Positions 2,538 through 38,293 of a stretch of DNA of 38,401 nt are shown piece by piece. The notes below the pieces were generated by a model that searched no databases, had not been told where the DNA came from, and saw only the letters and a list, made by a program, of their open reading frames with translations. The DNA is from a virus. Taxonomy: Duplodnaviria; Heunggongvirae; Uroviricota; Caudoviricetes. The position numbers and the translations under genes were made by a program. Within the stretch, counting starts at the first letter, position 1; each line of letters opens with the position of its first letter. The stretch lies in IMG/VR virus record IMGVR_UViG_3300044259_000172. The stretch is one strand, 5' to 3'.

Positions 2538-2563
2538 TAATTTCTTTCTTTCTCTTGGAGGTA

Positions 2564-3659: not shown

Positions 3660-3849
3660 CGTCTTCTCCCAAAAGTTTTAGGACTTTATTTAATTTTTCT
3701 TCTATAGACAAAAGATGTTTTTCCTTTGCTCGTTTTCTTTTAAAGTCTTCATATGACTTTAGATCAGAGACCAAAATCGCTTTTGATCTCTTATCTCTTA
3801 CCAACCCAGATGAATTTTCTACTTTCAAATAATCAGTGCTTTGTGTCAT
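3649..3849 (-). CDS. Conserved small hypothetical protein (66 aa) with C-terminal coiled coil
   Basis: LKVENSSGLVRDKRSKAIL...SYEDF resembles the small gene that follows VrlC-like genes in T4-like phages. Confidence 0.6.
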   Translation of the reverse strand: MTQSTDYLKVENSSGLVRDKRSKAILVSDLKSYEDFKRKRAKEKHLLSIEEKLNKVLKLLGEDVVI

Positions 3850-3859
3850 ATGATATCTA

Positions 3860-19450: not shown

Positions 19451-20685
19451 TTATTTACCTCATTTTCAAAAACATGATGAATGATATCAATCCCAAATTC
19501 TTCCCAAGACTTTTGTTTAGAAGAAAATTGTTGAAGTTTCATTCTAATTTGTTGCTTTGCAATATTTTTCACAGATTGATTTGGATCATCATTCTGCAAA
19601 TCTACAAACAATTTGAATGCGATACCGCATTCTTTATTTTGAAGCTTAGAATTATTAATTGCATGAGCAAAATTCTTTCTATCTTCCCGAGTTTTTTCAC
19701 ATTTGAAGAAATCGATATTAGAAATTTTACAAATTCTAACGATTCTAGAAATCAAATCTTCTGCATAGTAATTAATATCATATTCAACAATCTTCTTTGC
19801 ATGATCAAGCTTTGGCTTCAAAATTAAATCAGCATTCGAATAAATATCATCCCATTCTTCAGAAAGATATGCTCTTACAAAATGTCGATCAGATCGCAAC
19901 AAATCAGTATATCGATGCATTTTGACGTACCAATCGCCTTTAACTTTCACCCGATGACCTGAATCCAGACGAATAACAATTCCTTCTTTGTCATCAAATG
20001 ATTTTACTTCTTTGATCATTTCATCAAAAGTTGAAAATGTTTCTTCAAAGGATCGAACGAGTGGAATTGAATAATCGCTAGAAATAGATTGAAGAGTTTC
20101 AAGATCAAAATAAGTTCCTGGAATATTTTGACGAATATCCAAAAGAGTCAATCTCGGTTCAGGATAATCAATCACAATTTTATTAGATCGCGAAGTGAAT
20201 TCAAAAATAGGAGTACAATCATAGATTTCCCACATATCACGAAGAAAATCCTGAATATTTTCTTCAGTACATGCAAAATTTTCAGCAAACATAGATGTAT
20301 CAGTGATGCCAGCTTTGGTACCGAGTCTAATACCCTTTTCCAAAGGAATTGAGCGAATCATTGATCCATCTAGTTTGATGAATGATCTATGAGGTTCTTG
20401 TACAGGAAAATATGAAGTTTGTTCACGTTCTCCATAATTGAAAAATTTATGAAATGGTCGAGAAATAAGTTCACCGGTAGAATTTAAAAATGCAATTCCT
20501 CGGCATTCACGAATAAATTTGTCTTCTTCCTTTTCAATAGGAGGAAAATTATCCGGGTTCAACCCATTATAATTAAAAACAGTATATTCGCCTTGATCTA
20601 CTTCATGAAAAGTAGTAGGATCACGAAGCTTTTCACGAAAAGCTTTAATATTTTCAATTACTGGAAAATTATAATTTAGGTCCAT
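19447..20685 (-). CDS. rnlA: RNA ligase 1, T4 Rnl1/gp63-like
   Basis: RECRGIAF, RPFHKFFNYGE, motif I KLDGS, TPIFEF, NKIVIDY, EGIVI, VKVKGDWY. Confidence 0.9.
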   Translation of the reverse strand: MDLNYNFPVIENIKAFREKLRDPTTFHEVDQGEYTVFNYNGLNPDNFPPIEKEEDKFIRECRGIAFLNSTGELISRPFHKFFNYGEREQTSYFPVQEPHRSFIKLDGSMIRSIPLEKGIRLGTKAGITDTSMFAENFACTEENIQDFLRDMWEIYDCTPIFEFTSRSNKIVIDYPEPRLTLLDIRQNIPGTYFDLETLQSISSDYSIPLVRSFEETFSTFDEMIKEVKSFDDKEGIVIRLDSGHRVKVKGDWYVKMHRYTDLLRSDRHFVRAYLSEEWDDIYSNADLILKPKLDHAKKIVEYDINYYAEDLISRIVRICKISNIDFFKCEKTREDRKNFAHAINNSKLQNKECGIAFKLFVDLQNDDPNQSVKNIAKQQIRMKLQQFSSKQKSWEEFGIDIIHHVFENEVNK

Positions 20686-24008: not shown

Positions 24009-24012
24009 TAAA

Positions 24013-24351
24013 TTGACAACAAGTAATTTTTTACAAAAAACTAGTTTAGATATTGGAACTTCAGTTGTCTCCATTGGAGGTTATACAGTTCCAGCTTCAA
24101 CACAAACCATAGTTATTGGATTAACTGTCTCGAATAAAACTACTTCAACTATTCAGGTCTCCATTAGTTATTATAATGGAACTACTGATGCTTATGTAGT
24201 CAAGAATGCTTCGATTGTTCCGGGAGGATCTATCGTAGCGGCAGGGGGAAATCAAAAAATTGTGATGGCAGCAGGATCTAGTGTCAGAGTAATCTCATCT
24301 GCAGCAACATCAGCTGATGCTATAATGTCAATTCTTGAAATAGGACCATAA
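24013..24351 (+). CDS. Small tail-fibre-associated beta-sandwich protein (TTG start)
   Basis: IGTS...GGYTVPAST.TIVIGLTVSN...YVVKNA.IVPGGS.V...GNQKIV...S..S..SADAIMSILEI family that typically follows AIALG-ending fibres. Confidence 0.75.
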   Translation: MTTSNFLQKTSLDIGTSVVSIGGYTVPASTQTIVIGLTVSNKTTSTIQVSISYYNGTTDAYVVKNASIVPGGSIVAAGGNQKIVMAAGSSVRVISSAATSADAIMSILEIGP

Positions 24352-24354
24352 TAA

Positions 24355-25581
24355 ATGAGTTATATCGGAAATACTCCTACATTAACAACTAGAATAGATT
24401 ATATTTTTGTCTCATCTCAAGGACAATTGACATTTTCGGGAACAGATTCTAATAATCTGGTTCTCTCTTATAATCCTTCTAATGTTGATATATTTGCGAA
24501 TGGAGTGCTTTTACCAAGAAGTGATTTTGTGGCAAATGATTCAAGTTCGGTTATATTATCTTCAGCGAGAAATTCTGGAGACGTTATTACCGTTAGAGCT
24601 TACGGAATTCCAGATTCTATTAATGCTCTTTTACCAGGAAAAGTAGATGTTTCTTCTGCAGGGATCCTTTCCTCTTTTAGAAACAAAATAATGAACGGAA
24701 ATTTTGATCTTTGGCAAAGAGGAACTACCCAAACGACTTCTGGATATGGAGCAGCAGACAGATGGCTTTCAGGTAATTCCGGGTCAACTAAAACTACCTC
24801 ACTTCAGTCATTTACTCTAGGCCAAACTGATGTTCCTGGAAATCCAACTTATTTCTGTAGGACTGTAGTTTCATCTGTAGCAGGAACTGGTAATTTTGTT
24901 AATTTTTCTCAATCTGTAGAAGGAGTCCAAACTCTTTCTGGCAAAACTGCTACTTTAACTTTTTATGCTAAGGCTGACGCATCAAGACCTATGGGTGTTG
25001 AGTTTGCGCAAAATTTTGGATCATCAGGAAGTCCGTCATCACCTATATTAGGAATTGGTGCAACTAAAGTAAATCTAACAACTTCCTGGGCAAGATATGA
25101 TGTTGTAGTTTCTATTCCTTCAATTACAGGAAAAACCTTGGGAACTGATACTAATAATCTATTATTTATAGGGTTTTGGTTTGATGCAGGATCTTCTTAT
25201 AATTTAAGAAGTGCTTCCCTTGGTCAGCAATCTGGTACTTTTGATATTGCTAGAGTTTCTCTCGTTGAAGGAGATGCCAGATCAGATCTTAATCCATTTT
25301 CGGAAAGACATCCTCATCAAGAATTAGCTTTATGTGAAAGGTATTACCAAGTAATGCCTGGGACATATTATGCTTTTTCCGCAGGAGGAACTGCTACAGT
25401 TAGAAGATATCAAATAACATTTAGAAATCCTATGAGAGCTTCTCCTTCAGTTTCATGGAATTCGGGAGATACTTTTTATGTGGATGAAAAAAATAACAAA
25501 ATGATTAGATGGTATACGGACCCAGGATCAAATGCAGGTGAAAGAGCATTAGGAACTATTATTTGCGATGCAGAACTTTAA
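24355..25581 (+). CDS. Tail fibre / receptor-binding protein 1
   Basis: MSYIGNTP N-terminal anchor, VDIFANGVLL, FRNKIMNGNFDLWQRGT...ELALCERYY carbohydrate-binding-type domain, C-terminal DAEL. Confidence 0.85.
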   Translation: MSYIGNTPTLTTRIDYIFVSSQGQLTFSGTDSNNLVLSYNPSNVDIFANGVLLPRSDFVANDSSSVILSSARNSGDVITVRAYGIPDSINALLPGKVDVSSAGILSSFRNKIMNGNFDLWQRGTTQTTSGYGAADRWLSGNSGSTKTTSLQSFTLGQTDVPGNPTYFCRTVVSSVAGTGNFVNFSQSVEGVQTLSGKTATLTFYAKADASRPMGVEFAQNFGSSGSPSSPILGIGATKVNLTTSWARYDVVVSIPSITGKTLGTDTNNLLFIGFWFDAGSSYNLRSASLGQQSGTFDIARVSLVEGDARSDLNPFSERHPHQELALCERYYQVMPGTYYAFSAGGTATVRRYQITFRNPMRASPSVSWNSGDTFYVDEKNNKMIRWYTDPGSNAGERALGTIICDAEL

Positions 25582-25612
25582 GATATATAATGATATTAGA
25601 AAAGGAATATAA

Positions 25613-26104
25613 ATGGCAGTAGAATCAGCACACTATGATATGTTTGGAAATATAGTCGCAGTTATTGACGGGACGACTTATTCCATTCCAGATGAAATGG
25701 GAAATCGTTTCAGACAAATGGTAAAGGAATGGGAAGATTTAGGAAATACGATTGCACCTTATGTAGCTCCTCCTGCACCTATCGTCATTTATAAACCTAT
25801 AATTGAAGCTATTGCGGTATTTAATATTAATGGGGATGATATTGAAACTGTTGATCTATCAACAAAATTTTCTGGAGCAGCTAAAGTGGATGTAGGTAAA
25901 TATGTTCTAATGTTTTCTGAGCCAAGAGCTGATTCGAATTATATGCCTCTTGCATATTCTAATGATAATACCGATGCTAAATGTTCAATTAAATCTGATG
26001 AGATGTTTGATTCTTATTTCTTTGTAACTTGTGTCGATTCTCAAAATACTCCTATTGATATTACAAAATTATCAGTAGAAATTAAATCTCTTGTAGCAGC
26101 TTAA
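25613..26104 (+). CDS. Tail fibre assembly/chaperone-like protein 1
   Basis: IPDEMGNRFRQMVKEWEDLGNTIAPY motif shared with 26378-26875; C-terminus GKYVLMFSEPRADSNY resembles fibre-tip domains. Confidence 0.65.
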   Translation: MAVESAHYDMFGNIVAVIDGTTYSIPDEMGNRFRQMVKEWEDLGNTIAPYVAPPAPIVIYKPIIEAIAVFNINGDDIETVDLSTKFSGAAKVDVGKYVLMFSEPRADSNYMPLAYSNDNTDAKCSIKSDEMFDSYFFVTCVDSQNTPIDITKLSVEIKSLVAA

Positions 26105-26117
26105 AGGAAATTAAAAT

Positions 26118-26366
26118 ATGAAAATTGTATGTAATTCATTCAACAAAGTAACAGTATGGACGACATTTTCTGCTGATATTCCAGCCGCTGTAAAACAAAT
26201 TGTTGGAGTAGGAAATCCTTATTGGGCATGGGCATCCATTCCTGCGGGAAAAGTAATTGGGGCAGATTTTACAAATGCACCAATTTGCTCCTCAGATTTA
26301 ACTCAAATCGCTTCTGATATTGCTGCCATTACAGCTCTTCCAAATGATGTGTTAACTTATCAATAA
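26118..26366 (+). CDS. Hypothetical protein (82 aa)
   Basis: Good SD (AAAGGA); sits within the fibre cassette. Confidence 0.6.
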   Translation: MKIVCNSFNKVTVWTTFSADIPAAVKQIVGVGNPYWAWASIPAGKVIGADFTNAPICSSDLTQIASDIAAITALPNDVLTYQ

Positions 26367-26377
26367 GGAAAATAATA

Positions 26378-26875
26378 ATGGCTGTAGAAAGTGCTAAATT
26401 CGATCCTAAGGGGTCGATTATTGCCGTTATCGATGGAACGACATTCACAATTCCAGATGATTTTGGCAATAGACATAGGCATATGATTGAAGAATGGGTA
26501 AATGAGGGAAATACTATAGAAGAGTATGTTCCTCCTCCTGTTGATTTAAATGCATACGTCGCAAATCTTAGATATGAAAAGGAAATAGGCGGAACTGTTT
26601 GGAACACTTATCCAGTTCATACAGATAGAGAAAGTCAAAATAAAATTTCTGCGGAAGTTTTGGCTATTTCCTTAGGTTTAAGACAGGATGGAGATCCTTG
26701 GAAGTTTAAGGATGGTGAATTTAGGCCAATAACAAATGCTCAAATGACGGACATTGCTAATACGGTAAGATCTCATATTAGAAATGTTTTTGGAAAAGAA
26801 TCTTTAGTAATTGATAAAATTAATTCTAAAGAAATTACTACAACAGACCAGATTGATATCATATTTAATGAGTAA
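26378..26875 (+). CDS. Tail fibre assembly chaperone, DUF4376-like
   Basis: N-terminal IPDDFGNRH..MIEEW...GNTIEEY; C-terminal LRYEKEIGG...TDRESQ.KI...WK.KDG.F...T..QM..IA..V..HI...F.KE pattern. Confidence 0.75.
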   Translation: MAVESAKFDPKGSIIAVIDGTTFTIPDDFGNRHRHMIEEWVNEGNTIEEYVPPPVDLNAYVANLRYEKEIGGTVWNTYPVHTDRESQNKISAEVLAISLGLRQDGDPWKFKDGEFRPITNAQMTDIANTVRSHIRNVFGKESLVIDKINSKEITTTDQIDIIFNE

Positions 26876-27848
26876 TACATCAGATTTATCATTCTCGAAT
26901 ATATCTAAACAATCTGTTTCTTCAGGAGGAATTCTTTCTTCTTTTAGAAACAAAATCATAAATGGAAATTTTGATTTCTGGCAAAGAGGGACATCTCAAA
27001 CTTCAGCAGGTTATGGATCTGCGGATAGATGGTATTGTGATAATATCGGTTCTACTAAAACTACTTCTAGGCAAACATTCACTCTAGGTCAAACTGATGT
27101 TCCAGGAAATCCAACTTATTTTTGTAGGACTGTAGTTTCTTCTGTTGCAGGTGCTTCAAATTACGTAAATATCTTACAAAGAATAGAAGGAGTTCAAAAT
27201 CTTTCTGGTAAAACTGCTACTTTAACTTTTTATGCTAAGGCTGACTCAGCAAAGCCAATAGCAGTCTCATTAGTACAAAATTTTGGTACAACAGGAAGTC
27301 CATCATCTAGAGTTTTGGCGATAGGTTCAACTAAAGTAAATCTAACAACTTCCTGGGCAAGATATGATGTCGTAGTTTCTATTCCTTCAATTACAGGAAA
27401 AACCCTTGGAACTGACAATAATGATTTTCTAACTGTGGTATTTTGGTTTGATACTGGATCAAGCAATACAGAATCCGCTTCTCTTGGCCAGCAATCTGGT
27501 ACTTTTGATATTGCTAGAGTTTCTCTTGTTGAAGGAGATGCTAGATCAGATTCTGACCCATTTTCTCCTAGACATATTCAACAAGAATTGGCCTTATGTC
27601 AGAGATATTATTATAGTTCTTCTCTTGGGGTTGTTGCCTTTCCTGACTCTATTTCGGGTACACCTACTGATACGAGATCTAAATTTGCATATCTTTATTT
27701 TCCTGTTAGGATGAGAAGGGGTCCTTCAACATCTGGTACTGCAGGATTTTCACTTATAGGGGGAATAGATGGAATAATAGCTTCTATAGCAGCAGCTCAA
27801 AACGCAAGTTCAATTATTAGTACTTGGATAGCAGACGCCGAATTGTAA
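26868..27848 (+). CDS. Tail fibre / receptor-binding protein 2, lacking the N-terminal anchor
   Basis: ATG at 26868 (in frame with the track ORF from 26811, overlapping the upstream stop); FRNKIINGNFDFWQRGT...ELALCQRYY...DAEL; only about 20 aa before the shared domain. Confidence 0.8.
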   Translation: MSNTSDLSFSNISKQSVSSGGILSSFRNKIINGNFDFWQRGTSQTSAGYGSADRWYCDNIGSTKTTSRQTFTLGQTDVPGNPTYFCRTVVSSVAGASNYVNILQRIEGVQNLSGKTATLTFYAKADSAKPIAVSLVQNFGTTGSPSSRVLAIGSTKVNLTTSWARYDVVVSIPSITGKTLGTDNNDFLTVVFWFDTGSSNTESASLGQQSGTFDIARVSLVEGDARSDSDPFSPRHIQQELALCQRYYYSSSLGVVAFPDSISGTPTDTRSKFAYLYFPVRMRRGPSTSGTAGFSLIGGIDGIIASIAAAQNASSIISTWIADAEL

Positions 27849-27851
27849 TTA

Positions 27852-27890
27852 GTGATAAATAATCCTATATAATCTAAGGAGATTTATCAC
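27852..27890 (+). promoter_or_regulatory. RBS-sequestering hairpin with late promoter-like GATAAATA (27854-27861) in its 5' arm
   Basis: GTGATAAAT-AA-TCCT-[atataatcta]-AGGA-G-ATTTATCAC then C-ATG of the endolysin. Confidence 0.7.
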
Positions 27891-27891
27891 C

Positions 27892-28530
27892 ATGCATATT
27901 ATCGATGTCGTAAATAAATTTTGCCCAAATGCAAAACCTGCTTACATTCAGGCTTTTAAAGAAAATGATTCCAATTTTGTAAAATATGGAGTAAATTCAA
28001 CTAAAAGAGTTTCTCAATTTTTAGCCCAAACTATTCATGAAACTGGGCAATTTACTATTTTTGTTGAAAATGGAAATTATAATCCTGAAAGAATTCCTGA
28101 AGTTTGGCCTACAAGATTTAAAACAGTAGCTGCCGCATCTCCTTATGCTCATAATCCTCAAAAATTATTCAATAATGTTTATGCAAATAGAATGGGAAAT
28201 GGTCCAGAATCTTCAGGAGATGGATACAAATATCGCGGTAGAGGAACTTTACAGACTACAGGTAAAGAATCTTATGATGAATATGGGAAAGAGTTAGGAA
28301 TTGATCTTGTAACTAATCCTGATCTTTTACTTGATCCAAAATACATCCTTCTTCCGGCTCTTCTTGAATGGCATAATAAGGGATGTAATGAATTTGCAGA
28401 TAAAGGAGATATAAACTCTATTACATTAAAAATTAATGGAGGATATACAGGTCTTACTGAGAGAAAGCAATGGCTTTCAAAAATTCAGGCATTCATTGGT
28501 TCTTCCAATATAGAATTTGCTTCAGCTTAA
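27892..28530 (+). CDS. Endolysin, glycoside hydrolase family 19
   Basis: FLAQTIHETG, VENGNY, YANRMGNG, GDGYKYRGRG..QTTGKESY, ITLKINGGYTGL.ER. Confidence 0.92.
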   Translation: MHIIDVVNKFCPNAKPAYIQAFKENDSNFVKYGVNSTKRVSQFLAQTIHETGQFTIFVENGNYNPERIPEVWPTRFKTVAAASPYAHNPQKLFNNVYANRMGNGPESSGDGYKYRGRGTLQTTGKESYDEYGKELGIDLVTNPDLLLDPKYILLPALLEWHNKGCNEFADKGDINSITLKINGGYTGLTERKQWLSKIQAFIGSSNIEFASA

Positions 28531-28535
28531 ATAGT

Positions 28536-28543
28536 GATAAATA
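28536..28543 (+). promoter_or_regulatory. Late promoter-like GATAAATA heading the second cassette
   Basis: Intergenic, 20 nt before the ATG of the 93-aa paralog. Confidence 0.55.
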
Positions 28544-28563
28544 CTAGAAAAGGAAGATAAAGA

Positions 28564-28845
28564 ATGTCAGCACATTTAGTTTTTGGAAATGTCAAAGGAG
28601 GTCATCCTATTATTGACACAAATTTTGTATCAGCGGATATAGCTCATGGAACAATTTATACATCTCCAGATGTATCTCATAATTATCTTATTGTTCATAC
28701 TGATGAATTAGCTTGGGTAGCATTCAGCTCTGATTCAACTGTAGATCCAGATCCTTCTAAATCTCCTAGAATTTTAGTAGCAGCTCACTCGCCATTTCCA
28801 TTTTACATTAAGCCTGGTACTAAAATTAAAACGGCAGCAGCTTAA
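28564..28845 (+). CDS. Small beta-rich protein, paralog of 20793-21083; putative appendage adaptor
   Basis: SAHLVFGNVKGGHPIIDTNF...NYL...WVAF...PDP...PRI...PFYIKPGTKI. Confidence 0.7.
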   Translation: MSAHLVFGNVKGGHPIIDTNFVSADIAHGTIYTSPDVSHNYLIVHTDELAWVAFSSDSTVDPDPSKSPRILVAAHSPFPFYIKPGTKIKTAAA

Positions 28846-28857
28846 AGGAAATTTTTT

Positions 28858-29034
28858 ATGATTTCCTTATCAATGGGATTAGGATTTTCTTTGATAGGAT
28901 CAGTTTATTCTAATCAACAAGATACTACTAATATTCCTCCAAATGCCATGTTTAGGACAGTTGGAGGAATTGTATATTATGCGACAAGTAGCGTACAAAA
29001 TAATGCATATGCAGTTAGGAATTCATCTCAATGA
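28858..29034 (+). CDS. Small protein (58 aa) with N-terminal SLSMGLGFSLIG motif, below the ORF-track cutoff
   Basis: Hand translation MISLSMGLGFSLIGSVYSNQQDTTNIPPNAMFRTVGGIVYYATSSVQNNAYAVRNSSQ; AAAGGA SD; ATGA overlap with the next gene. Confidence 0.65.
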   Translation: MISLSMGLGFSLIGSVYSNQQDTTNIPPNAMFRTVGGIVYYATSSVQNNAYAVRNSSQ

Positions 29035-30722
29035 CAACTTTAACATTTGATTATGATTTAGATCAATTTTTTCAAAGGCTTCGAGGTTGGTGGTCTGCTC
29101 AATCTTTATCTGGTGCAGTCGATGGATCAGATGTCAATAGACTTCTAGATTTAACATCACACGGGCAGAGTATGGTTTCTGCATCAGCTTCTACGGCTCC
29201 TATTCTTAAATTAAATGGACTAAATGGGCATCCTACTCTTAATTTCGCAACAGGTAAAAGACTTGTAGCATCAACAATGGGTAATGGAGGAATTTTTCAA
29301 TCTGGAGCTATTTCACAGCCATTTACAATGATAGCAGTAGCAAAATCAAGAAGTGTAGATGCAGGAACAGCTAGAGTAATTTTATCATCAACCTCAGCAA
29401 GTCAATGTAGTTTACTTATCAATTCGACTGGATTACTCCAAATTGCTGCTGGAAGCAATGGAGCTCAAGGAGGACCTGTTATTGATGATGACACTTTCCA
29501 TATCGTAATTGGTTGTTTTGACACTGGATCAGCTGCTTTATTTGTTGATGGATATTGTGCAGGTGCTTCTTCAGGACAAACCCATGGAACAAATACTCTT
29601 GCTCAATTTACTATGGGATCAGTTGCTTCAGGAGCATCTTATTTTAATGGTGAAATCGCCGAAGTAATGCTTTTAGAAGGAAGACCTAAATTGCAAGAAA
29701 TTAAGATGATTAATGATTATCTTTCTTCTAAATGGGGATTAAATCTCGTAATCCCTTCTCAATCATCAGCAAATCCGATTACAGGAATTGATGCAAATTC
29801 GGTCACTTGTCGTACATGGTTACCTACCACAATAACTTCAACAACACCTGTATGTATAGTTTCTCACCAAGCAGGTGGAGATAGCAATATTACTTTATCT
29901 TATGGCATGTATCCATACATAAGAGAATTAGTAAATGCTGGTTTTTGTGTAATAGCCTCGGATAATGGAGGAGCAAATACTTGGGCTAATTCGGCTGCTC
30001 AAGCATCTCTTATGGCAGCTTATAATTTAGCATCATCGCAATTAACGGCATTAGGCGGTGGAGCAGGAAATGTCATGCTATTAGGATTTTCTATGGGCGG
30101 AGGAAATTCTATGATAGGAATAGCATTAGGAGGATTTCCTGCAGGTAAAATAAAAGCTTTAATGTCAGTAGATGGAGTTATGGATTTGTCTACTCTTTAT
30201 TCTCAATCTACATATACTTCAACAATTGAATCTGCTCATGGTATTACATCAGGAATTTTATCGGGGGCAACGATAGTAGGTGCAACATCTATTCCTACTA
30301 CAGCTTCATTTCCTACAATAGGAACAAAACTTATGGTAGGAAATGGAACTTCCAATGTAGAAATTGTCACAACGACAGGATCTTCAAATGGAACTTCCGT
30401 TCCATGTACAGCATTGACAAAACCACATGCATCTTCAGAGCAAGTTTCAGATTATCCTACAAAAACTTCAGGAAGAAGTGCAGTTACTCGTTCTCCAAAT
30501 GATTATACAGGTGTTAGATATTTTAGATTTTATGCTTCGTCTGGAGATACATCAGTTCCTAAAACTTCAAATGCTGATGCAATGTCGGCTCTTTTAGCCA
30601 CAGCATCATCTCCGCCTATAGAATATGCGGTTATAAGTCACCCAGGTGGGCATCTTCAAGGTGGGCATATGGCAAAAGATATGGTAGCATTTGCTTCTAG
30701 ATCTGGTTTAATTACAGTATAA
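29031..30722 (+). CDS. Putative tailspike: LamG/ConA-like domain plus alpha/beta-hydrolase (esterase)
   Basis: GWWSA...G..V..LLDL...FNGEIAEV...INDYLSSKWG LamG-type domain; LLGFSMGG nucleophile elbow (Ser354), GDTSV (Asp506), HPGGH (His537/His541). Confidence 0.75.
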   Translation: MTTLTFDYDLDQFFQRLRGWWSAQSLSGAVDGSDVNRLLDLTSHGQSMVSASASTAPILKLNGLNGHPTLNFATGKRLVASTMGNGGIFQSGAISQPFTMIAVAKSRSVDAGTARVILSSTSASQCSLLINSTGLLQIAAGSNGAQGGPVIDDDTFHIVIGCFDTGSAALFVDGYCAGASSGQTHGTNTLAQFTMGSVASGASYFNGEIAEVMLLEGRPKLQEIKMINDYLSSKWGLNLVIPSQSSANPITGIDANSVTCRTWLPTTITSTTPVCIVSHQAGGDSNITLSYGMYPYIRELVNAGFCVIASDNGGANTWANSAAQASLMAAYNLASSQLTALGGGAGNVMLLGFSMGGGNSMIGIALGGFPAGKIKALMSVDGVMDLSTLYSQSTYTSTIESAHGITSGILSGATIVGATSIPTTASFPTIGTKLMVGNGTSNVEIVTTTGSSNGTSVPCTALTKPHASSEQVSDYPTKTSGRSAVTRSPNDYTGVRYFRFYASSGDTSVPKTSNADAMSALLATASSPPIEYAVISHPGGHLQGGHMAKDMVAFASRSGLITV

Positions 30723-30732
30723 AGGAAAAAAA

Positions 30733-32847
30733 GTGGCTTCATTATCATTAGGTGTAGGATTTTCAATGGTAGGTCTATCTACTAAATTAGTAGATCTTGT
30801 AATTTATCCTATATCAATTTCAGGAACCCTTGAAAATGCGATAGTAGGAAATTATTTTTCATTTTTTCCAATGGTTTCAGGAGGATCTGGAACAAAAACT
30901 TTCTCTTTATCTGGAACTCTTCCTTCAGGATTAACATTTAATACTTCAAATGGATCTATTTCAGGAATTCCTACAGGATCTGGAATTTTCTCTAATATAT
31001 CAATTGCAGTATCAGATCCAACAGGTTCTGCTACACTTTCAAATATTTCATTGACTATAAAAGAAACATCTTCTATATCTTTAATTGCTACTTCTTATGA
31101 TATTCCAGTTTCTGTAAAATCTTCAACTTCTATAAGTCTTTCTCTTTCTGGAAATACTGCGACAGAAGGATCAACTGTAACGTTTATTGCTACAGTTTCA
31201 GGAGCAAATATCCCTACTGGAACGGTAACTTTTTATGATATGGGATTACCTCTTTCTACCGTTAGTTTGAATAATGGAGTAGGAACATTTAATACATCTT
31301 CTTTACCTTCAAGAGATCATATCATTTCTGTAGCATATAACGGAGATGACAATAATAAAACATCATTTTCTTCTCAATTAAAATTAACTATTGATGCAGT
31401 TATTAATCCTCCTGTAAATACTTCTGTTCCAGTTGTATCTGGAAGCACAGTATCAGGTTCAGTTTTAACCTCAACTACTGGATCTTGGACAGGAACTTCC
31501 TTAACATATTCATATCAATGGATCTGGGCTGATACTTCAACTCCTATTTCTGGAGCAACATCATCTACTTATACTCTAGTAGATTCTGATGGTGGGCATC
31601 AAATTTCATGTATAGTTACCGCATCAAATTCTGCTGCTACCGTAAGTTCTACTTCGTCTCCAACTTCTACTATTACTATTCCGATAAGATACCCAGTTAA
31701 TACGGTAGCTCCAACTATTTCAGGAACTCCTTCAACTGGGTCTACTCTTACTGCATCAACAGGAACTTGGTCAGGAAATTCTATTGTCTATACTTATCAA
31801 TGGATCTGGGCTGATACTTCAACTCCTATTTCTGGAGCAACATCATCTACTTATGTTCCAGTTTCTGGAGATGTTGGACATACTATAAATGTTCAAGTTA
31901 CTGCAACAAATTCTTATGGAACAGGAACTGCTTCTGCTACTCCTACTTCAGCTATTACTGCTCCTATATTATATCCAGTTAATACAGCAGTACCAACTAT
32001 TTCTGGGACTGTTTCTGTAGGATCTACTTTAACAACTACAAATGGAACTTGGGATGGAAGCGGAATAACTTATACCTACCAATGGTATTGGGCTGATACT
32101 TCTACTCCTATTTCTGGAGCAACGTCATCTACTTATATCATTGCATCAACAGATGCTACACATACTATCAGTTCTCACGTAACTGCTACGAATACCTATG
32201 GAAATTCTACAGCAAATTCAGCTGCAACAACAGTAGTAGTTTCTACTTCTGGTGTTACATTCTTTAGTGATACATTTACCGCAGCTGATGGAACACAATT
32301 AATTGCAGGATCTTATGTAGCTGATACAGGTCAGGCATATGAAACTCAAACTGGGGTAACTGTTGACGTTCTTGCTAAGATTTATAATGGAGAAGTGTAT
32401 AACCCTGCCGCTTCATCTTGGACGAATACTCCAAGAGCTAAAACAACACAAACCGCGTCTAATTATTATGTAGAAGGTGTTCTTGATTGTATTTCAGTTC
32501 TATCTGGAGAAACTGTAGGTATTACAGGTAGAGCTTCTGCTACCGAACAATCTTTATATTTTGCTAGATATTCAAGAGTTGTAAATGGGTGGCAATTATA
32601 TAAAACTGTGACAGGAACATCTACTCTTCTAGGATCATATTCTGATACCTTTACATCAGGACAAAGAACTCTTCGTTTAGAAATGAATGGTACCTCATTA
32701 AAAGTTTATGTGGATGGAACTCTCAGAATTTCTGCGACAGATTCATCGATCGCAGGACCAGGATCTCCAGGAATGAGAATTGGAGGATCTACTCAATCTC
32801 CTACCACCGGTACTCACATTACATCACTTAAAGCAGTCACATTGTAA
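30733..32847 (+). CDS. Multi-Ig-domain virion protein with C-terminal ConA-like domain
   Basis: GTG start; He_PIG-like SGTLPSGLTFNTSNGSISGIPT; Big_3-like VTFIATVSG..PTGTVTFYD...YNGD; three PVNT..P.(I/V)SG...TYQW.WADTSTPISGATSSTY repeats; KVYVDG C-terminal beta-sandwich. Confidence 0.8.
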   Translation: MASLSLGVGFSMVGLSTKLVDLVIYPISISGTLENAIVGNYFSFFPMVSGGSGTKTFSLSGTLPSGLTFNTSNGSISGIPTGSGIFSNISIAVSDPTGSATLSNISLTIKETSSISLIATSYDIPVSVKSSTSISLSLSGNTATEGSTVTFIATVSGANIPTGTVTFYDMGLPLSTVSLNNGVGTFNTSSLPSRDHIISVAYNGDDNNKTSFSSQLKLTIDAVINPPVNTSVPVVSGSTVSGSVLTSTTGSWTGTSLTYSYQWIWADTSTPISGATSSTYTLVDSDGGHQISCIVTASNSAATVSSTSSPTSTITIPIRYPVNTVAPTISGTPSTGSTLTASTGTWSGNSIVYTYQWIWADTSTPISGATSSTYVPVSGDVGHTINVQVTATNSYGTGTASATPTSAITAPILYPVNTAVPTISGTVSVGSTLTTTNGTWDGSGITYTYQWYWADTSTPISGATSSTYIIASTDATHTISSHVTATNTYGNSTANSAATTVVVSTSGVTFFSDTFTAADGTQLIAGSYVADTGQAYETQTGVTVDVLAKIYNGEVYNPAASSWTNTPRAKTTQTASNYYVEGVLDCISVLSGETVGITGRASATEQSLYFARYSRVVNGWQLYKTVTGTSTLLGSYSDTFTSGQRTLRLEMNGTSLKVYVDGTLRISATDSSIAGPGSPGMRIGGSTQSPTTGTHITSLKAVTL
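31513..32136 (+). repeat. 60-bp direct repeat core in three tandem Ig domains (31513-31572 and 31795-31854 exact; approx. 32077-32136 with a few mismatches)
   Basis: tatcaatggatctgggctgatacttcaactcctatttctggagcaacatcatctacttat at 282-nt spacing. Confidence 0.88.
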
Positions 32848-32856
32848 GGAAATAAA

Positions 32857-35694
32857 ATGACACTATCAAATATTATTAACAATGGAACAGTATCCTTAAC
32901 TGCTAATGTAAATTCAACAACCCCACTAACAGGAACAGTTGAATTTTATGATGGATCTACTAAAATAGGACAAACTCCTATTTCATCAAATATGAATATT
33001 TCATCTGTTATTTCATCAATTGGAAATCACCAATTGCAGGCAAAATATTTGGGAGATGCGACACATTTAAGTTCAGATTCTTCTCAATTAAATGTGAATG
33101 TTTCTGAATCAAATCTTCCAGATTTTACATATGATTCTGATACAATTTTATGGATTAATACAGTTAATGCTAAATTAACGACGGCATCCTTGACTCTTTT
33201 GACTAAAAGAGAAAAATATCATTATGATAGAATGATTAAAAGAATGAAATTTGATGAGACATGGTCTTATCAATTATCTCTTCAATTAAGAGCTGCCCCT
33301 TCTCAAGGAAATTCATCAAGACAAAAGATTATTAGTTCTGTTGATATTAGAAATCCTTCTATTAATTCAACTGAAATAGGAACTATAAATGAAACTCCAG
33401 ATACTGGATCTATTTCAGGAAATACTTCATCTTATATTAATACGGGATTTGATTCAAGTCTTTTGAATCAAGATGATAATTTCATCATGATGATGACAAA
33501 TAAATTGGAAACTGAAACTTATTCAGGAACGGCCCTAGATTTATGCGGTGTTATTTCTGGAGGAATTGGATTGACTATCAATCCTTATGTTTCAGGAACT
33601 GGTGGAATAAGTATAAGAAATAACAATGCATCCTTGACACCAGGGTCTGCATCAAGTGTTTCTAATGGTTCTGGGTTCGTAGTTATTAATAGAGATTCTT
33701 CCACTTCCGTAACATGCTATAGAAATGGCAAAAAACATCTCAATTTAAATCTTTCATCAGCAGGAAAAGTTTCAGGGAACATATTTCTAGGTGCAGTTAA
33801 TAATGGAGGAACTCCTACAACTGCTTCTACTGGGTTTAGATATTCTGCTTTTGGGGCAGGACGTTCAATGCCAGCAAATTTACAGAAGAAATATTATGCA
33901 TCAGTTAGAACTTTGGTTGATGCCATTCAATGGGGGCTTGTAGATTTCAATGAACCTGGAACGAATCCTACTAATGTTGTAGCAGATGCAGTTGTTTATG
34001 GTCTCACTTCTAATGGGATTGCTGCAGCTTATGAATTAAAACGTCAAGGTAAAAATGTAATTTTAGTAGGAGGTTGGAGAGATTTTCCAGGAAACCTAGG
34101 AGGAATGATGGCAGGAGGATTAGGGTTCTCTGACTTTGATAATCCTTCAGGTATCGCAGGACTTTCCAAATTAATTCTTGCTCTCATCAGATCTAAACAG
34201 AACATTAATACTGACTATTTTAATTGTAGATTTGCTAATTATACATTCAAACAACTACTGGATCCAAATAAACCATGTGGGCTTGATATTCCAGTCTATC
34301 TTTCGGAAGGAATTGAATCAACTACGAATGATGGTGGAACAGTTACCACATCCATTAAGACAGTTGATGGAAGAAGATTTTATGCAAAATATTTTATAGA
34401 CTCTTCATATGAAAGCGATTTAATAGCTCTTTCAAATATTTCTTATAAAGTAGGAAGAGAAGCTTCTTCTACCGGAGAAGAAATAATGAATGGATGGAGA
34501 GGAACTTCTACATCCTTTAATGAAGGTTCTCACCAGTTTAATGTTAATGGAACTTTGGTAAATGTAGATCCATATAAAACAATAGGAGATTCAACTTCTG
34601 GATTAATTTATGGGGTAAGACCTTGGCCTACAGGTAGAACTACAGGACAAGGAGATGTTGCAATTTATAAAAATAGATTAGTAACAAGTTCATCATTAAC
34701 TACTCCTGTGACTCAATCATTTAATTTTAGATTAATGATGGCCACCTCTGCGGTTTTTGTTTCAGATGAAACTTGGGCTTCTACCCCTCCTCCAAATTAT
34801 CAATCTTCCGAATTTGAATCTCTCTATAGATTTTGCGAGGCTGCAACCGCTGCAAGCTTATCTTATGGATATGTTGGAACTATTTTAAAAGCAGACTCTG
34901 TAGGAACAGGAGCTCTGGATATCAATTCTCAAGGAGGATTGTCAACAGATTTTTGGTTTGGAGCTTGGGATTATGTAGAAGCTTCTTATGCTGCAAGAGA
35001 GATAATCTGGAATGAAACCAAACAAAGAACTTATAGATTATTTTATGCTCATAGAAATGAACCTAGAATTCCATCAGCTTTGAGAACATCAGCAAACACA
35101 TTTAGTTTTCATAATGAAAATTTTGTAGATGTTTATAAAAATGATGATATTCATATGTCAACTCAATTGTATATCAGAGAAGCAAGAAGAATAATTGGAG
35201 ATCTTATCATTGATGCAAATGATATGGTTAAAACCGATGGAACTACTCCTAAAAGCATAAAAACTATTGGATTGGCTTCATATGCAGAAGACTCGCACCA
35301 TACTGGTCAATATGTTCATCCTACAATTTCAAAAATTTGGAATGAAGGAGGCTTTCTAAGATTTGGACCAGGAGGCGCTGACCAATTAACTCCAATTCCT
35401 TATGAAGCAATTTGTCCTAAAAGAACAGAATCTACGAATGTATTTTCTATTTTTGGATGTTCAGCGACACATGCAGCCTTTGGTTCTATAAGAATGGAAT
35501 TTACTGCTTGTATGTTAGGTCAAGCTGCTGGGATGGCAATAGCCATAGCCTTGGAATCGGGAAATATTGCTATCCAGGATGTTCTTTATAATACAAATTC
35601 TAATGATAATTTAAATCTTAGATCTAGATTATTAGCATCTGCAACAAATACTGCCTATGGAGAAACAACTCCTATTCTTCCAATGGTTAATTAA
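32857..35694 (+). CDS. Ig-like + LamG-like + FAD-dependent oxidoreductase (PF12831-type) fusion; putative virion appendage enzyme
   Basis: N-terminal Big_3-like TGTVEFYDG...YLGD; from about aa 375 AVVYGLTSNGIAAAYELKRQGKNVILV, LGGMMAGGLG.SD, AKYFIDSSYESDL, Y.VGRE, QSFNFRL, YIREARRIIG, IGLASY..DSH, IPYEAICPK, SATHAAFGSIRME...MLGQAAG. Confidence 0.8.
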   Translation: MTLSNIINNGTVSLTANVNSTTPLTGTVEFYDGSTKIGQTPISSNMNISSVISSIGNHQLQAKYLGDATHLSSDSSQLNVNVSESNLPDFTYDSDTILWINTVNAKLTTASLTLLTKREKYHYDRMIKRMKFDETWSYQLSLQLRAAPSQGNSSRQKIISSVDIRNPSINSTEIGTINETPDTGSISGNTSSYINTGFDSSLLNQDDNFIMMMTNKLETETYSGTALDLCGVISGGIGLTINPYVSGTGGISIRNNNASLTPGSASSVSNGSGFVVINRDSSTSVTCYRNGKKHLNLNLSSAGKVSGNIFLGAVNNGGTPTTASTGFRYSAFGAGRSMPANLQKKYYASVRTLVDAIQWGLVDFNEPGTNPTNVVADAVVYGLTSNGIAAAYELKRQGKNVILVGGWRDFPGNLGGMMAGGLGFSDFDNPSGIAGLSKLILALIRSKQNINTDYFNCRFANYTFKQLLDPNKPCGLDIPVYLSEGIESTTNDGGTVTTSIKTVDGRRFYAKYFIDSSYESDLIALSNISYKVGREASSTGEEIMNGWRGTSTSFNEGSHQFNVNGTLVNVDPYKTIGDSTSGLIYGVRPWPTGRTTGQGDVAIYKNRLVTSSSLTTPVTQSFNFRLMMATSAVFVSDETWASTPPPNYQSSEFESLYRFCEAATAASLSYGYVGTILKADSVGTGALDINSQGGLSTDFWFGAWDYVEASYAAREIIWNETKQRTYRLFYAHRNEPRIPSALRTSANTFSFHNENFVDVYKNDDIHMSTQLYIREARRIIGDLIIDANDMVKTDGTTPKSIKTIGLASYAEDSHHTGQYVHPTISKIWNEGGFLRFGPGGADQLTPIPYEAICPKRTESTNVFSIFGCSATHAAFGSIRMEFTACMLGQAAGMAIAIALESGNIAIQDVLYNTNSNDNLNLRSRLLASATNTAYGETTPILPMVN

Positions 35695-35708
35695 AATATT
35701 TGATGGGA

Positions 35709-36065
35709 TCAAAGATCAATCCCATCAACTTCTTTAGCAGAAGAATCCCATTGCTTCCGAACCTTTTCGATAATACCAGGATAACGATATTCAAATTCCT
35801 GGTACAATCCTTTTCGAACTTCTTTAGCAATTTTAATATCATCAGCCCAAATCATAAAAGTTTTAATTTGGGAATTATAACCAATTTTATACTGAGTGAC
35901 AGGATCAATATCTACGATCCATTTACGATCACCCGAAGAATCGATAAAAGTGTAATAATTGAAATAATGAAGAATATCTTCGAGATCCTTTTCAATAGTC
36001 TTTACAAAATCTTCAATCTTGATCGGAAGATGACGAAGCCCTGAAATTTTCACATTCTTGATCAT
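35709..36065 (-). CDS. Hypothetical protein (118 aa)
   Basis: ORF track; GGAG SD; coupled to the upstream small ORF by an ATGA overlap. Confidence 0.6.
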   Translation of the reverse strand: MIKNVKISGLRHLPIKIEDFVKTIEKDLEDILHYFNYYTFIDSSGDRKWIVDIDPVTQYKIGYNSQIKTFMIWADDIKIAKEVRKGLYQEFEYRYPGIIEKVRKQWDSSAKEVDGIDL

Positions 36066-36686: not shown

Positions 36687-37148
36687 TCAAAAATCTCCTG
36701 GAGCACATTGAAAACAGGGAATTCCATTTTCTCGCCACATTGAAACTACAATGTCTCTATCATCCACGGCAAATTCAATATCAAAATGCTTGACAAATTT
36801 GTCAAGCATTTCCTTTTTTACGATATTATCAGGCCTGCGATCCCCTTCTGACCTCATAAAAAGACGATTATGGATGCTGATTTGATGATCATGAGAAAGA
36901 TTTTCTTCAAGCCATTGAACAGTTTCATCATAAAATTCTGCTGATCTGCCTGAAGAATAGAGAATGACAAATTCTCTAGATGCAACGATCATATCATGCA
37001 AAATCTTTACATGCTTGTTTGGTGTATCATTTACACATGCAGCATTGAATGCATACCAATTCTTTGGAGCATGTTGAACATATTTTCGCCGATGAGTAGC
37101 ATCACAGAGTGTACCATCGAGGTCAAAAATTACAGCTTTAAATTTCAT
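36687..37148 (-). CDS. HAD-family polynucleotide 3'-phosphatase (stand-alone T4 PseT/PNKP phosphatase-type domain)
   Basis: IFDLDGTL, SGRS, LFMRSEGDRRPD.IVK.E, AVDDRDIVVSMWRENGIPCFQCA.GDF. Confidence 0.88.
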   Translation of the reverse strand: MKFKAVIFDLDGTLCDATHRRKYVQHAPKNWYAFNAACVNDTPNKHVKILHDMIVASREFVILYSSGRSAEFYDETVQWLEENLSHDHQISIHNRLFMRSEGDRRPDNIVKKEMLDKFVKHFDIEFAVDDRDIVVSMWRENGIPCFQCAPGDF

Positions 37149-37648: not shown

Positions 37649-38293
37649 TCAGAGGGTCTTTATATTATCAACTAGATTTGCGAATTCAGGATCTTCCCTG
37701 AAATGAGTTTCATGAATTTCTTCAATAAGAGTTGATTGAAGAAATTCAATAGAAAATGTATATTTTCGATTTTTATTGAATGGAGGTTTTGATCTCCAAA
37801 TGAGAGAATTGTCCTTATTGTCATTGTATTTTACAAGAGGAACAATGAGATTTGGAGCAAAATAACAAATCGATTCAATCATTGATTCATAAGTTCCTCC
37901 TACATCAGACAAAACTGCCTTTATAAAAATCTCTTTATTTTGATCAGACACATATTCCGATTCAAGAACCCTTTTATCAAAGATAATCCTCGGCTTAGTC
38001 AAAAGGAGAATAGAAAGAATAGCAACTTCCTTTTCTTCTTCAGTCAAAAGAGGAACAATATCTTTCAAAGTAAAATCAGTATCTTCGATGACATCATGAA
38101 AAAGAGCTACCTTAAATGCAGTCATATAATCAACCCTGGAATGTAGTTGATATTGTTCTATGATTCTTTTAGTTTCAAGAGCTACACGAAATGGATGAAG
38201 CCAATATGGGCAATCCAAGGAATCTACTTGACCTTCATGAAATTTCTTCATTTCATTTACGAGATATTTCTTATTGTTGATCATTACATTCAA
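37649..38293 (-). CDS. HD-domain hydrolase, SpoT/Mesh1 small-alarmone-hydrolase-like
   Basis: H.GQ.D...PY.LHP..VA, ALFHDVIEDT, LLTK, VK..D..DN motifs. Confidence 0.8.
   Translation of the reverse strand: MNVMINNKKYLVNEMKKFHEGQVDSLDCPYWLHPFRVALETKRIIEQYQLHSRVDYMTAFKVALFHDVIEDTDFTLKDIVPLLTEEEKEVAILSILLLTKPRIIFDKRVLESEYVSDQNKEIFIKAVLSDVGGTYESMIESICYFAPNLIVPLVKYNDNKDNSLIWRSKPPFNKNRKYTFSIEFLQSTLIEEIHETHFREDPEFANLVDNIKTL

Follow-up and report, generated by a model that had tools for sequence, protein, structure and literature searches.

We describe a phage gene, P0001, whose 945-aa product joins Ig-like and lectin-like parts to a complete flavoprotein domain of the PF12831 family. The gene lies in a stretch of 38,401 nucleotides (the window) from the IMG/VR virus record IMGVR_UViG_3300044259_000172. 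With a probability of about one half, we consider P0001 to be a late-expressed, particle-associated accessory enzyme of the tail-fibre block that acts on host surface polysaccharide. The positions of the gene and its homologues, the residues kept across the phage clade and the glycan-related fusions of the bacterial relatives all bear on this reading.

Table 1. Features of P0001 and of its neighbourhood, in window coordinates.
Feature	Position	Strand	Remarks
563-aa protein	29031..30722	+	Laminin_G_3 at aa 95-223, then alpha/beta-hydrolase-like part with G-F-S-M-G motif
Upstream partner gene, 704 aa	30733..32847	+	He_PIG, Big_3_5, repeated Ig-like domains, C-terminal jelly-roll-like domain
P0001, whole gene, 945 aa	32857..35694	+	Open reading frame checked; last gene of rightward late block
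Big_3_5 (bacterial Ig-like) domain, aa 8-82	32878..33102	+	Pfam E 6.7e-13, 49.5 bits vs cut-off 35.5
Two-helix linker (aa 94-132), ConA/LamG-like beta-sandwich (~aa 127-351) and helix (aa 340-359)	33109..33972	+	AF2, Foldseek
Complete PF12831 (FAD_oxidored) domain, aa 377-910	33985..35586	+	Pfam E 1.7e-49
Dinucleotide-binding beta-alpha-beta, aa 379-426	33991..34134	+	Y-G-x-T-x-x-G; V-G-G-W-R-D after strand 2; GGM..GGLG..D
Inserted cap (substrate) domain, ~aa 530-865	34444..35451	+	R625, R658, D688, N690, Y772, R774, Y809, D812, H814
C-terminal flavin-side signature, aa 869-892	35461..35532	+	S-A-T-H ... R-M-E ... G-Q-A-A-G
Terminator-like hairpin, 13-bp stem, between convergent genes	35700..35728		Starts 6 nt after P0001 stop codon

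Late-gene setting of P0001 and its homologues

The window (G+C 35%) is part of a complete 154-kb T4-like phage, the nearest isolates of which are phiM9-type phages of Rhizobiales; a megablast of 18 kb against phages gave no match, and no tRNA was seen within the window. The P0001 frame is open throughout and follows an AAGGA Shine-Dalgarno sequence placed 7-8 nt before its ATG; judged by its profile scores (Table 1), a 945-codon frame of this kind in DNA of 35% G+C is far beyond chance. It ends a rightward block (21264-35694) with tail-fibre PHROG matches inside it, in which tail fibres are followed by a GH19 endolysin (27892-28530), a LamG-esterase, an Ig protein and finally P0001, a placement in a tail-fibre/late structural block such as tailspike and tail-fibre depolymerases have. 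Replication and nucleotide genes are distant from P0001 and convergent to it, on the other strand. The LamG-esterase, which is the 563-aa protein of Table 1 and a putative esterase from its motifs, matches a PHROG named 'virion structural protein'. The Ig protein is the 704-aa upstream partner, and its Big_3_5 domain is 32% identical to that of P0001. The same pairing of the 704-aa gene with P0001 is found in L092, an unrelated phage of 53% GC that carries, in the same cassette, a copy of P0001 with 57% identity over the whole length.

Some features of these junctions were considered and set aside. The 704-aa and 945-aa frames are in frame with a single TAA between them, both in the window and in L092, and a read-through that fuses them is unlikely, since TAA terminates strongly and an AGGA ribosome-binding site precedes each of the two genes. 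An open reading frame at 35700-36044 (+) was rejected as a downstream partner or chaperone because it looks like the low-complexity antisense of a real convergent gene at 35709-36065 (-), and the small genes downstream of homologues were ruled out as a conserved partner, as they encode unrelated membrane proteins. A complex prediction for aa 1-372 of P0001 with the C-terminal domain of the 704-aa protein scored 0.00 and was counted neither way.

Among the homologues, about 16 of the 18 informative contexts are late or structural modules of phages or prophages, three isolated Rhizobium phages among them. One homologue lies between two Phage_tail_2 genes and another, in L105, immediately precedes a P2-type tail fibre and sheath; their junctions with the Phage_tail_2 genes and the P2-type fibre are overlapping or leave gaps of 1 nt. 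Further copies precede a J-like tail protein (L098), separate the major head gene from a head-closure gene (L104), follow an SU10-type capsid gene or, in prophages, follow tail genes. In L005 a Phage_lysozyme gene is found upstream and a membrane protein gene downstream, and in L003 a DUF1515 gene follows. Scanning IMG/VR with a pattern from the single protein gave no match. The three Rhizobium phages, RHph_N3_19 (QIG73101, annotated as 'hypothetical'), RHph_Y55 (QIG68875) and RHph_I72 ('FAD dependent oxidoreductase domain-containing protein'), encode the lectin-like plus PF12831 unit in late/structural blocks, with 30-36% identity over 78-91% of the query. Unlike P0001 they are without the N-terminal Ig domain. 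Their genomes are of podo- or sipho-type and measure 54-69 kb, and the genes beside them encode portal, terminase or head proteins, whereas P0001 ends a T4-like tail-fibre block. Our literature search found no studies of these annotated homologues.

The earlier note on this DNA had spoken of a tailspike. This term proved too specific, as P0001 has no known tail-fibre anchor, PHROG match or beta-helix; the homologues occupy head, connector, tail or lysis-adjacent positions. The absence of a PHROG match, a tail-fibre anchor, a coiled coil or a trimeric beta-helix, together with the compact globular model, counts against particle incorporation. Such a variable gene place is the behaviour of an accessory 'moron' and constitutes no proof of incorporation.

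Two readings of the setting have then to be weighed. P0001 could be a free enzyme directed, as a particle-borne one would be, at host surface polysaccharide. Synthesised late in the cytoplasm and no part of the particle, it would be set free by lysis and remove capsule or EPS near the burst cell, which would aid progeny spread or escape from trapping on debris. In the window (the GH19 endolysin), L092, L005 and L003, P0001 or its homologue follows or adjoins lysis genes, which speaks for such an enzyme, as do the varying gene position and a compact, monomer-like fold that has neither an anchor nor a PHROG match. Against it stand the N-terminal Ig-like domain, homologues that are fused to tail-fibre N-termini, the copies wedged between Phage_tail_2 genes and before the P2-type tail fibre at overlapping or 1-nt junctions, and the neighbouring LamG-esterase with its virion-protein match. 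Ig-like domains in phage genomes are reportedly found almost only on virion proteins (Fraser et al. 2006). We regard the free enzyme as unlikely, while being the alternative that survives best, and the presence of P0001 in the virion as rather probable.

Domain structure and conservation of the putative active site

The first domain of P0001 bears out the Ig-like domain that the earlier note had proposed: Pfam assigns it to Big_3_5 (Table 1). It is the only element recognised at the N-terminus, where neither Pfam nor PHROGs gave a tail-fibre family match; some homologues do have tail-fibre PHROG segments. PHROGs and NCBIfam gave no match for P0001. The AF2 model of the protein is confident overall (pLDDT 91.5, pTM 0.90), the Ig domain being poorly modelled, and the linker, beta-sandwich and helix that follow reach pLDDT values above 90 and pack rigidly against the flavoprotein domain. 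Over query residues 127-351, Foldseek matched the model to the NTNH, BoNT Hc-N, trans-sialidase lectin and CBM40 jelly rolls at probability 1.0 and E ~1e-6; normalisation to the full-length model accounts for the low TM values. The LamG-like domain of the earlier note is accordingly kept as a jelly-roll fold only: aa 83-372 have no Pfam match even at E<=1, Laminin_G families included, and 'LamG-like' is a fold resemblance in the model rather than a family assignment. One homologue gives a faint Laminin_G_3 match. About 90 homologue clusters keep the lectin-like part and the FAD domain together.

The assignment of the remainder to PF12831, also put forward before, was confirmed by a Pfam profile check, with a score of 169.7 bits against a cut-off of 27 over profile positions 1-408 of 416. 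Every motif quoted in support of it could be located in the 945-aa translation: VVYGLTSNGIAAA at aa 379-391, GGLG at 420-423, FIDSSYESD at 513-521, YIREARR at 772-778, SATHAAFGSIRME at 869-881 and GQAAG at 888-892. Confident models show a flavoprotein of Rossmann type into which a cap domain is inserted, and no known depolymerase fold. A single-protein sequence search of the PDB gave no match and a profile search returned only Rossmann N-termini, while the viral structures of BFVD yielded generic flavoprotein folds only. Fumarate reductase, urocanate reductase and 3-ketosteroid dehydrogenase (KstD) (PDB 6t85, 1qo8, 4c3x, 7p18) have a cap inserted at the same place; about 220 of 581 residues align at 12-15% identity, with the cap unmatched, and there is no profile match past the first 50-150 residues. 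This likeness is best taken as one of fold class rather than of membership in the FAD_binding_2 class.

Conservation was counted in 109 phage-clade representatives and 41 bacterial ones, 67 bacterial relatives being used for the G-x-T-x-x-G count. D426, R625, R658, D688, N690, Y772, R774, Y809, D812, H814, R879 and E881 are each found in 105-109 of the 109 phage-clade and in 40-41 of the 41 bacterial sequences; R879, M880, E881 and the cap residues vary little or not at all, and all are present in the query. The dinucleotide signature of the query, Y-G-L-T-S-N-G...A-A, is typical of the family and differs from the textbook GxGxxG, the third glycine of which is a threonine throughout the subfamily. 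In the phage clade, G382 is kept in 103/109, T or S at position 384 in 99/109 and a small residue at 387 in 108/109; G-x-T-x-x-G occurs in 64/67 bacterial relatives. The phage clade lacks the canonical glutamate after strand 2; the segment V-G-G-W-R-D at this place is clade-specific, and an acid at 409 (D409 in the query) is found in 100 of the 109 representatives. In bacterial relatives the acid either ends strand 2 or is part of an S-P-D-x-H variant, with which the W-R-D-x-H of the phages aligns. H872 is relaxed, being present in 71/109 phage-clade sequences vs 41/41 bacterial ones, and the query has it.

Since a threonine replaces the third glycine, the glutamate is missing and H872 is relaxed, flavin binding cannot be taken for granted, and these deviations lend some credit to a catalytically dead flavoprotein fold that serves only as a receptor-binding head, the more so as phage receptor binders frequently originate from enzymes. 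This second reading of the earlier note does not withstand the conservation data well. All eleven family-invariant residues and most of the near-invariant ones are kept across the 109 phage-clade clusters as they are in the bacterial enzymes, the motif deviations are common to the bacterial relatives and therefore no phage-specific decay, and H872 is retained in the query. We hold the dead fold to be very improbable. With all invariant cap residues and a family-typical dinucleotide signature, the flavoprotein domain of P0001 is apparently still catalytic and not a mere binder. Flavin binding is considered likely.

Bacterial relatives and the link to glycans

The lectin plus PF12831 unit is recurrent: it forms one well-supported clade of more than 100 clusters at 50% identity. 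Homologues number more than 3000. The phylogeny, which had been proposed as a way to find a bacterial donor, nests this clade among secreted bacterial PF12831 proteins. The latter share the full-length domain with P0001 at 29-34% identity and TM 0.7-0.9 between models and, like P0001, combine G-x-T-x-x-G and the invariant cap residues with a carbohydrate-binding module next to the catalytic domain. They are secreted via Sec or Tat signals and come mostly from Planctomycetota, Verrucomicrobiota, Bacteroidota and Acidobacteriota, with fusions to a CBM6/35/36-like Golvesin_C module, to polygalacturonase and to arylsulfatase. Unlike these proteins, with their signal peptides and C-terminal CBM6/35/36-like module, the phage clade is without a signal peptide and shows the N-terminal lectin-like jelly roll, the V-G-G-W-R-D/E segment and a late-gene context. 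Two clade members lie in contexts that are not phage-like, which counts against the preferred reading, namely the lectin-less P0058, which adjoins a polysaccharide pyruvyl transferase gene, and P0005, which adjoins genes for a GT4 glycosyltransferase and TatAC. The pyruvyl transferase neighbour at the same time favours a link to glycans.

Fusions among the homologues include short-tail-fibre and tail-fibre PHROG segments, He_PIG Ig, Laminin_G_3 and a SASA esterase, and an esterase or lipase is found beside or fused to the unit in four independent cases: the window, L003 (GDSL), P0043 (SASA) and L116 (lipase). Owing to the glycan-type fusions of the bacterial relatives and the esterase partners in phages, the substrate of P0001 is probably a surface glycan, and the glycan link drawn in the earlier note holds; that P0001 is active on a glycan we consider quite likely, more so than flavin binding.

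The same relatives leave very little room, slightly less even than for a dead fold, for an intracellular auxiliary enzyme of nucleotide, DNA or lipid modification or host metabolism with incidental Ig and lectin parts: FAD enzymes for DNA hypermodification do occur in phages, a FAD-dependent lyase (PDB 8z2o) is among the weak structural matches and P0001 lacks a signal peptide, but the 8z2o match covers the shared Rossmann part only (TM 0.17-0.31), the relatives are secreted, CBM-fused and from phyla rich in polysaccharide degraders, and the gene sits in a late structural block far from the convergent replication and nucleotide genes.

Proposed function and comparison with known systems

Under the preferred reading, that of a particle-associated enzyme, the target would be the capsule, EPS or LPS of the host. 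The Ig-like domain might act as a spacer or weak adhesin and the lectin-like jelly roll might hold the glycan, while the PF12831 chemistry would take place in the cleft between the dinucleotide-binding domain and the arginine-rich cap. The Arg, His and Tyr residues conserved in the cap point, by analogy, to an acidic substrate, and the likely target would be a sugar residue of anionic type (uronic, ulosonic, pyruvylated or sulfated). As no NAD(P)H is available to a particle outside the cell, a bound flavin is proposed. It could work as an oxidase with O2 as acceptor, giving a keto-sugar that then undergoes beta-elimination, or in a redox-neutral manner by transient oxidation, elimination and re-reduction; the neighbouring or fused esterase may strip acyl groups first. 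The GH4 and GH109 glycosidases use NAD+ in this second way: the cofactor stays tightly bound and undergoes no net oxidation or reduction. They provide a mechanistic analogy only, with NAD+ as cofactor and unrelated active sites, for glycosidic bond cleavage by a bound cofactor of this type, which would suit an extracellular enzyme. Oxidative or redox-neutral bond cleavage, as opposed to a simple modification, is put forward tentatively, as somewhat less likely than not. It is doubtful, although conceivable, that the lectin plus PF12831 clade represents a new catalytic class among phage enzymes that process polysaccharides, in which a virion-attached flavoenzyme would cleave or prime the acidic surface glycan of the host by flavin-mediated oxidation and subsequent elimination, O2-dependent or redox-neutral, with a partner esterase.

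To our knowledge, the phage depolymerases and surface-glycan modifiers characterised so far are without exception hydrolases, lyases or esterases, and they belong to few folds. Tailspike and tail-fibre depolymerases and deacetylases (beta-helix lyases and hydrolases, sialidases, SGNH esterases) are, like P0001, modular, late and located in the fibre region, and likewise combine binding modules, an enzyme-type domain and partner esterases; in both cases host surface polysaccharide is the substrate to be expected. P0001 differs from them in its two-domain flavoprotein-type fold, which is not a beta-helix, beta-propeller or SGNH fold, in having no known particle-binding N-terminal domain, and in that trimer-forming features are not evident. 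Our literature search yielded no description of a phage tail enzyme that has a flavoprotein domain and no publication on a lectin-flavoprotein fusion, which agrees with the earlier remark that no characterised phage tailspike has a flavin redox domain. Nor did it find a functional study or demonstrated reaction for any PF12831 member, and no solved structure matched by sequence, so the chemistry of the family had rightly been called poorly defined.

If the preferred reading is true, a flavoprotein domain in phage-host recognition would widen the known chemistry and supply a further class of enzymes with which to remove capsule or EPS; if the protein is free or inert, the finding shrinks to an unusual accessory gene. 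PF12831 is abundant in glycan-degrading bacteria, and the phage clade would be a natural experiment with a defined substrate, the host surface polysaccharide. With Rhizobium etli or R. phaseoli as culturable hosts, RHph_Y55, RHph_I72 and RHph_N3_19 make the function of PF12831 directly testable, and these phages could become the first tractable handle on its reaction in bacterial polysaccharide-degrading loci.

A minor point concerns the name 'xanthan lyase', which secreted bacterial PF12831 proteins often bear wrongly. Its derivation from Paenibacillus XalA was considered and found to be wrong, as XalA and the Bacillus GL1 enzyme belong to PL8. The name arises from the shared C-terminal CBM6/35/36-like 'Golvesin_C/Xly' module and therefore says nothing about the flavoprotein domain.

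Architecture, family and putative flavin site of P0001

The reading frame of P0001 is open and encodes 945 aa. All the motifs quoted for it in the earlier note were recovered (aa 379-391, 420-423, 513-521, 772-778, 869-881 and 888-892), and the PF12831 assignment was borne out by a full-length match to Pfam FAD_oxidored (aa 377-910, E 1.7e-49, profile positions 1-408 of 416); judged by its sequence, P0001 is a bona fide member of this family. A Big_3_5 Ig-like domain occupies aa 8-82 (Pfam, E 6.7e-13). The stretch between both domains gave no match in the Pfam search; in the AlphaFold2 model (pLDDT 91.5, pTM 0.90) it forms two helices followed by a beta-sandwich, which Foldseek matched to the lectin-like jelly rolls of NTNH/BoNT Hc-N, the trans-sialidase lectin domain and CBM40, and residues 85-945 make up a single rigid unit. 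The fusion of Ig, LamG-like and flavoprotein domains described earlier is correct overall, with "LamG-like" holding as a resemblance of fold (Foldseek) and failing as a Pfam match.

With P0001 as query, an exhaustive phmmer search returned 3069 cluster representatives at E<=1e-3, of which 479 passed E<=1e-30. The ~100 strongest matches align from about residue 85 of P0001 to its end and thus have the lectin-like plus PF12831 unit in common. A FastTree tree without outgroup was built from 150 representatives together with 38 copies from bacterial genomes. In it, every lectin-fused sequence and every one of the V-G-G-W-R-D/E type fell into one clade of ~110 tips (support 99), hereafter the phage clade; this phylogeny, proposed earlier as a route to the bacterial donor, nested the clade among secreted bacterial proteins. 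The best GTDB species-genome matches, only 29-34% identical to P0001, stem from Planctomycetota, Verrucomicrobiota, Bacteroidota, Acidobacteriota and Paenibacillus. GenBank labels two Rhizobium phage homologues FAD-dependent oxidoreductase proteins.

The dinucleotide signature of P0001 departs from the textbook form, with Thr in place of the third glycine; the glutamate that follows strand 2 is also missing from the phage clade. That threonine is common to 64 of 67 bacterial relatives, whose acid either closes strand 2 (…E-P-G-x-H) or stands two residues further on (…S-P-D-x-H). It is with the latter form that the W-R-D-x-H segment of the phage proteins aligns, D/E409 being kept in 100 of 109 phage-clade representatives. 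H872, relaxed in one third of the clade, is kept in P0001. Tat signals are found in some bacterial relatives, as expected of proteins exported with their cofactor. From these comparisons, flavin binding by P0001 appears likely.

Genomic setting and exchange

The window corresponds to bases 72153-110553 of a 154,347-bp IMG/VR virus record that has direct terminal repeats and is rated complete. Among its leftward genes are those for a T4-type baseplate, both the wedge and a lysozyme-carrying hub. The 1746-aa protein shares 34-36% identity along its entire length with VrlC-like proteins of phiM9, Atu_ph04, P10VF and others, which are roughly 150-kb T4-superfamily phages of Rhizobiales; these matches place this low-G+C phage nearest the phiM9-type members of that group, and the gp6-like wedge protein indicates the same kinship. 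With a G+C content of only 30-36% in the window, our guess for the host would be a low-G+C alphaproteobacterium. The 563-aa protein of the rightward block matches phrog_10356 ("virion structural protein") and is probably a lectin-esterase. Beyond P0001, genes converge from the opposite strand.

Features of the window and of the related viral contig L092
Feature	Position	Strand	Description
1746-aa protein, phrog_358	3860-9100	-	"VrlC virulence-associated protein-like"
HNH endonuclease	17526-18095	-	between baseplate genes and fibre block
gp63-like protein	19447-20685	-	RNA ligase / tail-fibre attachment catalyst; between baseplate genes and fibre block
Rightward block	21264-35694		in order: collagen-like fibre protein, two phrog_4492-type tail-fibre proteins, DUF4376 protein, GH19 endolysin, 563-aa protein, 704-aa protein, P0001
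563-aa protein	29031-30722	+	Laminin_G_3 (aa 95-223), then alpha/beta-hydrolase-like part with G-F-S-M-G nucleophile-elbow motif
704-aa protein	30733-32847	+	Ig-like domains, C-terminal jelly roll
N-terminal stretch of 704-aa protein	30733-30780		L-S-L-G-V-G-F-S-M-V-G-L
P0001	32857-35694	+	Ig, lectin-like and PF12831 domains
13-bp hairpin	35700-35728		after P0001 stop codon, between two convergent transcription units
ORF 3' of P0001	35700-36044	+	low-complexity, probably spurious
118-aa ORF	35709-36065	-	convergent, looks real
PNKP-type HAD phosphatase	36687-37148	-	convergent, just past late block
HD-domain protein	37649-38293	-	convergent, just past late block
L092 cassette	215-7755		tail fibre, endolysin, small ORFs, Ig/jelly-roll protein, Ig-lectin-flavoprotein
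L092 Ig/jelly-roll gene	3592-4890		homologue of 704-aa protein (44% identity)
L092 flavoprotein gene	4903-7755		950-aa copy

Homologue contexts were counted in 18 loci picked from the best matches. The lectin-plus-PF12831 family is phage-associated, its clade members lying mainly in late modules of phages or prophages: in a prophage, following DUF6950 and GDSL tail genes (P0002), after a pectate-lyase-type protein and phage lysozyme (P0003), between two Phage_tail_2 genes (P0061), immediately before P2-type tail fibre and sheath (L105), before a J-like tail protein (L098), between major head and head-closure genes (L104), after a tail fibre (L094) and before the large terminase (L093). Isolated Rhizobium phages carry copies between terminase and SU10-type portal (RHph_N3_19), between head-morphogenesis and major head genes (RHph_Y55), and in RHph_I72. 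P0116, sister of the phage clade, follows an SU10-type capsid gene; its contig (ENA ERZ28653421), an SU10-like phage with the PF12831 gene in the structural block, also encodes APS-kinase-like and sulfotransferase-like proteins, a hint at sulfated glycans. Two contexts look cellular, with P0005 adjoining a GT4 glycosyltransferase and TatAC, and the lectin-less P0058 a polysaccharide pyruvyl transferase in a Brevundimonas MAG.

The L092 copy (IMG/VR UViG_2855527181_000002; 53% G+C) is 57% identical to P0001 over its full length, Ig domain included. The likeness of L092 and window implies that a two-gene cassette moves between very different phages. Its presence in both L092 (53% G+C) and the window (35%) indicates module exchange between distant phages and subsequent full compositional adaptation, the window copy being fully in keeping with the local base composition. 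In each cassette the Ig/jelly-roll and flavoprotein genes share a reading frame, separated by one TAA plus 9 or 12 nt; the chance of both pairs being in frame is ~1/9. As both downstream genes come with an AGGA site of their own, this probably reflects ordinary coupling or the trace of an old fusion.

Proposed function and its alternatives

PDB fold matches to two-domain flavoproteins leave the inserted cap domain of P0001 outside their span. The whole PF12831 domain matched uncharacterised AlphaFold DB proteins at TM 0.7-0.9, including fusions named polygalacturonase and arylsulfatase, and the nearest ESM Atlas models were PF12831 proteins, nearly always with a Golvesin_C module. This CBM6/35/36-like domain also occurs in Bacillus xanthan lyase, which explains the misleading "xanthan lyase" names. 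Their domain composition shows the bacterial relatives to be built like carbohydrate-active enzymes, with a catalytic domain and a binding module; the phage proteins share this logic but carry a lectin-like domain in front. Homologues also bear SASA carbohydrate esterase, Laminin_G_3 and He_PIG Ig domains and tail-fibre PHROG segments, and in four independent cases an esterase/lipase gene is adjacent to or fused with the flavoprotein gene.

We propose that P0001 is a late, probably particle-associated enzyme. Its jelly roll would bind host surface polysaccharide, which the partner esterase would first deacylate, and an anionic sugar would then be processed by the flavoprotein domain within its arginine-rich cleft. 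Only two extracellular flavin chemistries seem feasible, oxidation with O2 or redox-neutral catalysis, for which the NAD+-dependent GH4 and GH109 glycosidases provide an analogy; either could end in beta-elimination of the glycosidic bond. The main rival is the same enzyme acting as a free protein released at lysis, as favoured by its gene frequently neighbouring lysis genes and wandering in position between phages, and by P0001 having neither a known anchor domain nor, in the PHROG search, a match. The tail-fibre-enzyme setting of P0001 resembles that of known phage depolymerases, but it fails two of their defining features, anchor domain and catalytic fold, and should not be filed as a tailspike.

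A flavoprotein fold reused as a receptor binder, one of the options in the earlier note, fares worse, as the conserved residues speak against a catalytically dead domain retained as a binder. When 109 phage-clade and 41 bacterial representatives were compared, D426, R625, R658, N690, Y772, R774, Y809, D812 and H814 were unchanged in 109/109 of the former, with D688 and R879 kept in 108 and E881 in 105; each of these twelve residues is kept in 40 or 41 of the bacterial ones. The inserted cap domain (~aa 530-865), which in related flavoproteins closes over the flavin, holds eight of the twelve. Purifying selection on catalysis would leave just such a pattern. Our literature search found no paper studying a protein of this kind; the culturable Rhizobium phages with homologues make the chemistry of PF12831, a large orphan family, testable.

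Of 23 phage-clade homologues whose N-termini are short, 8 (P0003, P0013, P0016, P0028, P0032 and others) start with a (Gly-hydrophobic)n peptide, e.g. M-G-I-G-L-G-I-G-L-G-L, followed by a conserved L-P-x-F-x-Y-E helix. The 704-aa protein upstream of P0001 begins similarly, and such stretches may possibly be attachment peptides.
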